DNA of 64,000 nucleotides from Eledone cirrhosa (GCA_964016885.1 OZ024743.1:146754001-146818000), one strand, 5' to 3'; shown: positions 57,276-58,894, counted from the first letter of the stretch. The notes: a model not told the origin generated them from the letters alone. A program made the numbers and translations.

Positions 57276-57323
57276 TGTCCATTCGTCTAGCTGTCTGTCT
57301 ATCTATCTATCTATCTATCTATC

Positions 57324-58298
57324 GAGTGTGCCCAGGCGCTCACGGCTCTCTGGCAGGCGGACCCGGCTGTCAGTGGAGAATCCACCTCATCATTCTATAG
57401 AGGGCTGGTGGTTAGCAGGTGCGACGACGCCCTTGGAGAGGCCCTAGGCATGGAGGAAGACGAACTGGCCAACCTGTTCGGTAGGACATTCAGCCCGGGA
57501 CCCATGGATAACTTCCAGAGGTCCCTGGCCTGGCAGTGCTACAGAAGGGCTCTGCCCGTTCGAGAAAGGCTCTACAGACACGGGCGCCCGAGTAGGGACT
57601 CCTCGAAAAAGATCTGTTCCAGATGCGTGTGCGATGAGGAAACCGTTGCACACGCATTGGTACACTGCTCGGGCATTGCCGATCTGTGGGGCTACGTCGA
57701 ACAAATGCTGTCAAGGGTGGGACCGATCCAGTTGACCAGCGAGTCTATTGTAATGATCAAGCCGCCTCCCCTCTTCAAAAACAAAGGAGAGGCGGTGTTT
57801 CTGTGCGTAATAGCCATGGCGAAAGAGGTTGTATGGTGGACGCGTCTGAAAGGACTGAGGTCAGACACCTTTCTCTCTGGTCAACAACTGGCCCATATCT
57901 TCCGATATCATTTCGGAAGAAGGATCAGGATGGAGAGAGAGAGGTGCTGCACCCCAGCTGTTTTTATGAAAGATGGGTGAAAGTGGCGAGAATGGCCCGT
58001 GTGAATGGGCCTTCACTCTACATCAGACTATAGGTGAGGAAGATGAAAGACCAAGGGAGCACCCCCTCTCTGTGCTCCCGAGGAGAAGGGTTGCACACTT
58101 TTTTTCGGGGGTGTGTGAGACCCCCCAAGGCGCCTCCTCTCTATTGAGGATTTTGTTATAAATTTTATTTTGTTATATTTTATTTTATTTTTATATTTTG
58201 TTATTGCCTCCTCCTTATTGAGGACGCCTTGTTATGTAAACTCCCCCCATTGTACTTGTCCCACTTTTTGATGCCCTGGTGGCAAATAAAAAGAAACA
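57324..58298 (+). mobile_element. 5'-truncated Tx1 LINE, sister family, inserted in (TATC)n
   Basis: ORF 57408-57980 is homologous to the ORF2 C-terminus (MDNFQRSLAWQCYRRALPVR, CSRC..ETVAHALVHC), with a different 3' UTR. (TATC)n directly on both sides. Confidence 0.92.
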
Positions 58299-58329
<31 letters not shown>

Positions 58330-58394
58330 TTGTCTGCCTGCCTGTCTGCATGTCTGTCTATTTGTCTATCTGCCTGCCTATCTATCTTTCTATC

Positions 58395-58462
58395 TGTAAA
58401 ACCCTGCCGCCACGTCTTGTAATGTCCCATTTTTGTATGCCCCTGTGGCAAATAAAGAAAGA
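58395..58462 (+). mobile_element. Short Tx1-type 3' end within TATC/TGTC repeats
   Basis: tgtccc..tttt..atgcccctgtggcaaataaagaaaga(TATC) parallels the end at 58257-58298. Confidence 0.75.
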
Positions 58463-58894
58463 TATCTATCTATCTACCTGTTTATCTGTCTGCTTGTTTT
58501 ATCTACCCTTGTGTATGATTGTCTCTTTATCACATATAATTGTTTCTACTTTAGGCACAAGGCCAGCAATTCACCAGTGCATTACTGGTACTTTATTTTA
58601 TCGACCCCGTAATCACATATAATGCACATATAACTGCACACATAACAGCAATCATGGGCATAACCTTATTTTTCCATGCACACACACATATATATTCTTA
58701 TATAAATATAGCTTGGAATTTTTAAGTTTTAAAATTTATCACAAAATTCTATTGTTCTGAATTTTTTGACAAGTTGTTGATTTTAACAAGAGCACAAAAT
58801 TTATTTCGATTTGGGCTGTAAATTATTTAAAGAATTTAAAAAAATAAAAAGAAGAAGGGAAGCAATAACAACAACAATAATGAAAATAATGATA

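Follow-up and report, generated by a model that had tools for sequence, protein, structure and literature searches.

The 64,000-nucleotide stretch of the Eledone cirrhosa genome analyzed here (GCA_964016885.1 OZ024743.1:146754001-146818000, hereafter the window) carries on its plus strand, at 57324-58298, what we consider with a probability of about 90% to be a truncated and frameshifted copy of a long interspersed nuclear element (LINE) family that inserts specifically, and in one orientation, into (TATC)n microsatellites. We call this family B, and a related family with a full-length copy on the minus strand of the window family A; both names were coined in this analysis. The family B copy, a 5'-truncated retrotransposon of the non-LTR type (LTR, long terminal repeat), is one of two insertions in a degenerate (TATC)n array, which by sequence and tandem-repeat reading spans 57286-58505. 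The upstream target array, (TCTA/TATC)n at 57286-57323 (Tandem Repeats Finder (TRF), period 4, 9.5 copies), adjoins the truncated 5' end of the copy, so that at the junction 57323/57324 the array ends in ...CTATCTATCG and is followed by AGTGTGCCC. The insertion has a GC content of 50%, compared with about 32% in its surroundings, and consists of a C-terminal remnant of open reading frame 2 (ORF2) including the zf-RVT/CCHC region (57324-58033; PF13966, E 3.5e-06) and a 265-nt 3' untranslated region (UTR; 58034-58298), which ends in ...GGCAAATAAAAAGAAACA and has no poly(A) tail. The 204 amino acids of the remnant match the C-terminus of the family A ORF2, which is full-length and on the minus strand, with 62% identity (126/204). 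As compared to a 96.7% identical copy with an intact ORF2 elsewhere in the genome (L031; loci are cited by such numbers), it contains a 2-bp insertion at 57933-57934, and because this shifts the frame the true ORF2 stop is the codon at 58031-58033.

On the 3' side the copy runs directly into a further array (58299-58395), which is a perfect (TATC)7.8 at 58299-58329 and then degenerate and TATC-like; (TATC)n thus adjoins both ends of the copy. The second insertion (58396-58462, plus strand) is a 67-nt, 5'-truncated 3' end of a different TATC-lineage subfamily, ending in ...GGCAAATAAAGAAAGA. Over 53-57 nt it shares about 95% identity with subfamily 3' ends in L121, L058 and L026, and TATC follows it, the rest of the array extending over 58463-58505 (TRF 58467-58505). 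An earlier note on this DNA, made from the window alone, had described a diverged ORF2 C-terminus with its own 3' UTR and TATC at both ends, together with a second short 3' end in the same array, and both are real. The limits given there for the whole feature, 57298 and 58475, fall inside the flanking arrays, and the element proper is 57324-58298. It had also placed the endonuclease of this family outside the window; none was found inside, and an intact family B ORF2 was recovered in L031.

The 3.0-Gb genome was searched with three family B queries, and for each of them 30 loci were taken with 1.5-kb flanks. We scored the best 40 of 4,168 first-look candidates for the 974-bp family B fragment, the best 40 of 1,839 for the 3' UTR and the best 40 of 1,261 for the 220 bp at the 5' end of a complete family B copy. 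Among the best 40 for the 974-bp fragment, 39 other copies were 95-97% identical over the full query. The window copy and eight loci fetched twice were dropped, and in the 50 independent copies that remained the 3' junction was visible. The results showed TATC within 12 nt of the 3' junction in 46 of these 50 non-window copies and at least two tandem TATC units in 37, and TATC was always on the sense strand of the element. Within the fetched DNA 29 of the 50 copies were 5'-truncated, at reference positions from 3355 to 5441, and at least two TATC units were present in the upstream 24 nt of 22 of them; in the truncated copies L007 and L028 a single TATC opens the target-site duplication. Among full-length 5' ends at least two units were found in 29/30, the exception (L122) lying in TA-rich, TATC-like sequence. 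As a control we used 262 kb of DNA from the same genome (524 kb on both strands), where only 0.17% of positions have at least two TATC units in the preceding 24 nt (binomial P for 22/29 about 1e-55) and where a single TATC array, (TATC)3, was seen. The earlier note had named copies free of TATC at their 5' ends as the finding that would speak against its proposal, and the 5' ends of both truncated and full-length copies were mostly found to have TATC arrays.

Several loci (L002, L003, L004, L016, L018, L019 and L027) hold head-to-tail arrays of element, (TATC)n and element, and the window is arranged likewise. Two further copies, L013 and L014, lie about 4.2 kb apart on C7. Their flanks are identical on both sides, and a full-length 5' end comes after each of them; here a unit of element, TATC and element has been duplicated locally in tandem. 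No RNA data set was listed as containing the family B stretch. Of its sampled words, 4-24% were present in runs that bear the labels of at least 16 other organisms, a lead that hints at related elements in other species.

Family A provides the comparison within the window. Its full-length element of 6,028 bp (7525-13552, minus strand) has both reading frames open. ORF1 (11246-13339, minus strand) has a readable C-X2-C-X4-H-X4-C knuckle, CFRCGSKTHLRAFC, and ORF2 (7791-11207, minus strand) matches Exo_endo_phos, that is, an apurinic/apyrimidinic endonuclease (APE) domain (10473-11207; PF03372, E 3.1e-14), the reverse transcriptase (RT) domain RVT_1 (PF00078, E 1e-28) and zf-RVT (PF13966, E 7.4e-08). 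On the element strand, (ATT)18 lies directly past the 3' end (7471-7524, minus strand) and (ATT)7 directly before the 5' end (13553-13573, minus strand). The latter doubles as the 3' flank of an older, 5'-truncated copy of an ATT-lineage subfamily (13574-14409, minus strand), which stands in tandem upstream of family A and is 92-95% identical to it; in a comparison of the sequence upstream of this older copy (14418-15600) with family A no homology was found.

Genome-wide, all 30 sampled family A 3' ends run into (ATT)n. Upstream DNA was fetched for 20 of the 30 listed loci, and in 20/20 the 5' junction abuts ATT, the control rate for ATT being 0.075%. Eighteen of the 20 copies are full-length and have (ATT)n directly before GAATGCC..., with identities of 97-99.9%. 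One copy (L143) is truncated at position 3924 and has (ATT)n before the truncation point; the L137 region is without an element, the copy concerned (L073) being short, and the 5' junction of L073 also adjoins ATT. The 263-bp 3' UTR of family A in the window recurs with 100% identity in at least 40 copies across the genome. A family A 5' UTR query gave only six matches, yet near-identical 5' ends adjoin other family A copies, and this figure reflects a limit of the search and not copy number. The identical 3' UTRs, the mostly full-length copies and the open reading frames in the window make family A look very recently active. In 7/20 family A insertions (L134, L141, L143, L145, L147, L150 and L151) a (CTT)n run immediately precedes the (ATT)n target, which in these cases is a compound (CTT)n(ATT)n microsatellite. 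Another ATT-flanked copy, L102:1746-1795 (minus strand), passes from APE-coding-like sequence straight into ...GGTTAATAAAGAAAAC and looks internally deleted.

The content of the target before insertion is visible in copies at array edges, and there we read target-site duplications. These are TATCTTTATACAGACACA.. in L042 (about 18-20 bp), TATCTATTATA in L049 (11 bp), TATCTATTCA in L056 (10 bp), TATCTCTTAAAT in L007 (12 bp), TATCTCA in L028 (7 bp) and, at the edge of a TATC array, TATATGTATGTGTGTGTG in L059 (18 bp). All six start with TAT exactly at the 3' junction of the element, and all except L059, which starts with TATATG, start with TATC. The first nick would therefore fall at the 5' boundary of a top-strand TATC unit, which on the bottom strand is the position after GATA; the second is variable and lies 7-20 bp downstream. 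One off-target insertion, L047 into TATATATATACCACC, has an extra TATC between the end of the element and the duplication, and at least one UAUC therefore stands at the end of the RNA template.

The two families share their layout. A full-length family B copy of about 5.7 kb (L036) is flanked by TATC at either end and encodes an ORF1 with a CCHC knuckle, and in family B ORF1 the C-X2-C-X4-H-X4-C motif is readable as CYLCGTRGHLRAVC. The intact family B ORF2 in L031 (1145 amino acids) is colinear with that of family A and 68% identical to it, and the GDWN, (T/S)DH and YADD motifs are visible in both. Per 60-residue window the identity between the two ORF2s is 52-73% across the APE region, compared with 75-85% for the RT core. 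Among 53 distinct element 3' ends in the fetched DNA we selected 14 for a maximum-likelihood tree, so that all divergent clusters with 445 nt or more of homology were represented, and omitted near-identical family B copies and short ends. In this unrooted tree four ATT-flanked and ten TATC-flanked subfamilies are separated by a single branch with a support of 100/99. The idea in the earlier note that related families divide microsatellites between them, ATT vs. TATC, is thus supported by the flank counts of both families and by the split in the tree. It had also called the families closely related; with 68% ORF2 identity they are related, not very close.

Both lineages end in a conserved module, ...TGTCC...T-rich...GCC-N5-GGC-(A/T)-AATAAA-GAAA.., followed by two or three lineage-specific bases, and the last 6 nt of the 3' UTR differ between the families. 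In the window copy a stem-loop is predicted at 58264-58293 (plus strand), with an inner stem TGCC/GGCA (58272-58284) closing a 5-nt loop and an outer U-rich/A-rich stem containing AATAAA (58285-58290). Minimum-energy folds of the family A, family B and short-copy ends give this same architecture, an inner hairpin and an outer U-rich/A-rich stem with AAUAAA. Covariation was tested for the 4-bp stem (TGCC/GGCA in family B, AACC/GGTT in family A) on 24 distinct 30-nt ends, after two identical rows and the aberrant L102 had been dropped. In this test 84% of cells pair, vs. no more than 72% on sliding the partner column, and a score as high as the observed one arose in 3 of 500 shuffles. The compensatory double changes concern two pairs in the 4-bp stem and are essentially those of a single lineage, namely family A with a close relative. 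It is plausible, with modest support, that a shared 3' stem-loop has been retained, and this hairpin may act as a recognition site for the RT.

We suggest that the insertions arise when the microsatellite is nicked at a defined site and target-primed reverse transcription starts there. The N-terminal APE endonuclease would make its nick after 5'-GATA-3' in the bottom strand. The 3' end of the RNA, with at least one UAUC past ...GAAACA or ...GAAAAU, would then pair with the nicked strand and prime cDNA synthesis without a poly(A) tail. A cut of the top strand 7-20 bp downstream would produce the target-site duplications seen at array edges, and frequent early halts of reverse transcription would give the 5' truncations. 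The AATAAA located 6-9 nt before the junction may let transcripts end inside the downstream repeat. Since TATC is left on both sides of each insertion, later copies can land adjacent to it, giving head-to-tail arrays. The family A lineage would do likewise in (ATT)n, where the predicted nick is after AAT.

A number of points weigh against this reading or narrow it. The family B samples are best-scoring copies, and older or more divergent copies fall outside them. Among the 50 family B 3' junctions four have no TATC, three lying in TATA-type sequence (L005, L021 and L059) and one being aberrant with a 3'-truncated tail (L061), and five of the 29 truncated copies (L006, L008, L021, L047 and L061) have no TATC at the 5' junction. 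The TATC specificity of family B is accordingly strong, not absolute, and its off-targets are mostly TA-rich. In the window the older ATT-lineage copy at 13574-14409 adjoins (ATT)7 at its 3' end and has a 5' flank other than ATT. The split in the unrooted tree has to be read in the light of the 3'-end search behind it, which required TATC or ATT after AATAAA and missed relatives with other targets. The fold energies of the family A, family B and short-copy 3' ends are no better than those of shuffled sequences (z 0.0, -1.37 and -1.30). The retention of the 3' stem-loop claimed in the earlier note thus has modest support, from the common predicted architecture and the 84% pairing and not from the fold energies, with the compensatory changes essentially those of one lineage. 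Finally, the data fit endonuclease specificity and pairing between tail and target alike.

The last point matters for what reads the target, which may be the APE, the RNA tail or both. A specificity that arises mainly because the (UAUC)n or (AUU)n tail of the RNA pairs with nicked DNA, the endonuclease being only loosely TA-selective, seems to us possible, if on balance unlikely; if it is true, the pair of families teaches little about how an endonuclease is retuned. The repeat unit is indeed on the RNA tail (L047), the last 6 nt of the 3' UTR are among the positions that differ between the families, and the off-target sites in L005, L021, L047 and L059 partly match the tail, mostly TATA-type sequence being a 3-of-4 match to TATC. 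The nearest solved structures are those of human LINE-1 ORF2p (9k6g, 8uw3 and 8sxt; E about 2e-52) and of the L1 endonuclease, with the APE aligning over residues 5-207, and comparison of 1vyb with its loop-swap variants 2v0r (LTX) and 2v0s (LR1) places the swapped specificity hairpin opposite TNRIGSSRS of family A. Family B has ANRSGTSRS at this position. For this one loop, the comparison of APE DNA-contact loops proposed in the earlier note thus gave a difference at only 3/9 positions, which weighs on the side of the tail, and the loop is no more than a candidate specificity site. The APE region, by contrast, is the most diverged part of ORF2 (52-73% vs. 75-85% in the RT core), and the strict orientation and constant junction phase fit a defined nick site. 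In elements of this kind target choice is made mainly by the encoded endonuclease, according to the passages on this subject in PMC4494074 (citing Takahashi and Fujiwara 2002) and PMC3812793. Specific insertion at a defined nick, probably made by the endonuclease and with the pairing of the RNA tail as an aid, is our preferred explanation.

A more far-reaching proposal is that the two lineages, at least one of them still active, differ by one switch between (ATT)n and (TATC)n, made by a few APE DNA-contact-loop residues together with the last approximately 6 nt and the repeat tail of the 3' UTR. This is offered tentatively, and we doubt that it will hold in full. If it does, the families amount to a compact natural 'retargeting kit' for APE-type LINEs, whose elements seed and extend their own target arrays.

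Much less credible is that (TATC)n is merely the templated or stuttered 3' tail of the element itself, inserted at random, with the TATC at 5' ends left by older neighbouring tails or by chance. The RNA of L047 does carry at least one TATC unit, in L007, L008, L028 and L030 one unit is followed by unique DNA, and tandem arrays of elements exist. Tails of this kind leave unexplained the 5' arrays of 22/29 copies truncated at differing points and of 29/30 full-length copies, seen against a background of 0.17% and one 3-unit array in the whole control. In L007, L028, L042, L049 and L056, moreover, where a single unit follows the element, the duplication that begins with TATC is also present at the 5' flank, and the unit was therefore in the target. 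We give still less credit to passive accumulation or co-duplication in microsatellite-rich, low-recombination regions, or to arrays grown from tails after insertion, because, for all the microsatellites of this genome (110 TRF rows in 64 kb) and the local duplication seen in the near-identical neighbours L013/L014 with their same flanks, insertions show one motif, one orientation and base-pair-precise junctions where TA, AT, ATGT and TAC are far more abundant, flanks outside the arrays differ between loci, and target-site duplications are present.

Other repeats in the window touch on these elements to varying degrees. The sequence past (ATT)n at the family A 3' end (7400-7470, minus strand), CTTTGAGTCTCAGTCATTGATGTTATTTAACTGG..., recurs after ATT arrays elsewhere (3' flanks of L077 and L067), and the repeat that holds it itself carries an (AAT)n end. 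An abundant repeat resembling a short interspersed element (SINE) and ending in ...GTGCCTAAAGTAGAAACAATTATT occurs at 56800-56826, 57040-57062 and 58538-58610 and in the flanks of L135 and L067. Its tail resembles the LINE end ...AAAGAAATC(ATT)n, and in L135 and L067 the ATT-like tail continues into an (ATT)n array in which a family A copy is inserted; such tails may seed family A targets. The very long microsatellites at 1965-2300 ((AT)170), 45238-46199 ((ATGT)237), 48083-48316 ((TAC)78) and 54514-55196 ((TA)338) are associated with neither family. Long open frames at 33984-35021 and 62861-63982 (both minus strand) have similar RT C-terminal regions (...YADDL.LIAES...) and belong to a different retroelement family. 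Two further open frames, at 14661-15365 and 44082-44657 (both plus strand), share a ...YIG(S/E)T...R...H... pattern, which we take to resemble the GIY-YIG endonuclease modules of Penelope-like elements.

We provisionally assign both families to the Tx1 clade, judging from their architecture and behaviour. Their ORF2 has the APE, RT and zf-RVT layout expected of Tx1, but this layout is common to L1 proper and hence does not discriminate. Target-sequence-specific insertion, a feature of the Tx1 clade, is present in both, and so is the behaviour of the Kibi and Koshi families, with the same microsatellite at both junctions of independent copies in a fixed orientation. The Tx1 label would thus rest on the ORF2 domains, the ORF1 with its putative CCHC knuckle, the missing poly(A) and the target specificity, and not on a phylogeny with named references. 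Family A ORF1 had no Pfam match at E <= 0.01, and the ORF1 of neither family matches Transposase_22. Protein-atlas searches with ORF1 gave 'CCHC-type' clusters at 0.90-0.91, which are leads only, and variants of ORF1 with RRM or zf-CCHC are consistent with Tx1, as far as the part of PMC5203782 on these proteins goes. A homologue search returned 95 proteins, nearly all unnamed; the one useful named protein, the Ciona 'pol-like protein' BAC82626 (27% identity), could be tied to no named element. L1 (LINE-1) proper, which has a poly(A) tail and a loose target of the TTTT/AA type, was rejected, since a poly(A) tail was found on 0/50 family B and 0/30 family A 3' junctions, the elements ending in ...AATAAA plus 6-9 nt and then the microsatellite. 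A Dong/R4-type element was rejected as well, the N-terminal domain found being Exo_endo_phos (APE) rather than a restriction-like endonuclease.

L1-Tx1 families, some of them recently active, have been annotated in octopus and other molluscs (PMC13282606 Table 1, PMC8967140 and PMC10294476), and the passages concerned make no mention of target specificity. A Tx1-like LINE specific for (TATC)n or (ATT)n is reported nowhere in the full-text literature searched; neither Repbase Reports nor subscription journals were within this scope, and an earlier description may exist. The kind of element is already known, namely microsatellite-specific LINEs, and families A and B are new members of it that add no new principle. 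How microsatellite-targeting APE-type LINEs read their target is still poorly understood, as stated in a passage of PMC3812793. For this question the two families form a matched natural pair, with the same architecture, 68% ORF2 identity, a common 3' module and cleanly different targets. Exchange of the endonuclease or the 3' tail between them is directly testable with the intact coding sequences of family A in the window and of family B ORF2 in L031. For annotation, every TATC array in the window is tied to LINE fragments, and microsatellite markers of TATC or ATT motifs in this species will often adjoin repeated DNA.

Families A and B resemble several known systems in part. The colinear order of APE, RT and C-terminal region is that of human LINE-1, and unlike human LINE-1 they have no poly(A), no Transposase_22 match in ORF1 and strict microsatellite targets. 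Waldo and Mino, which belong to the R1 clade, are likewise APE-type microsatellite inserters and differ from families A and B in clade. Their targets, as listed in part of PMC3812793, are (ACAY)n and (AC)n. The same source names Dong as (TAA)n-specific, and R4 appears among the clades encoding a restriction-like endonuclease in the relevant part of PMC4640811. The AT-rich trinucleotide target of Dong, an element of the R4 clade, is equivalent to the (ATT)n/(AAT)n of family A; because the endonuclease types differ, restriction-like in the clade of Dong and APE in family A, the shared target is convergent. Crocodilian Tx1 families prefer (TTCC)n or (TTTC)n, according to a section of PMC4494074. 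Preference for a tetranucleotide is common to these families and family B, although the motifs differ; judging from that section the target class follows RT phylogeny in crocodilians, and a family was called specific at more than 20% of flanks, compared with 76-97% here.

The closest likeness in behaviour is to Kibi and Koshi. These two families were reportedly described by Kojima and Fujiwara in 2004. They are Tx1-clade elements of teleost fish and are specific for (TC)n and (TTC)n, respectively, as given in parts of PMC4494074 and PMC3812793. Like families A and B they are APE-type and microsatellite-specific, and in both cases related families use different repeat units. The present families differ in host animal and in their repeat units, (TATC)n and (ATT)n; the likeness is one of behaviour. 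As compared to Kibi and Koshi, a very young family is available here in family A, with at least 40 identical 3' UTRs and 18/20 sampled copies full-length.

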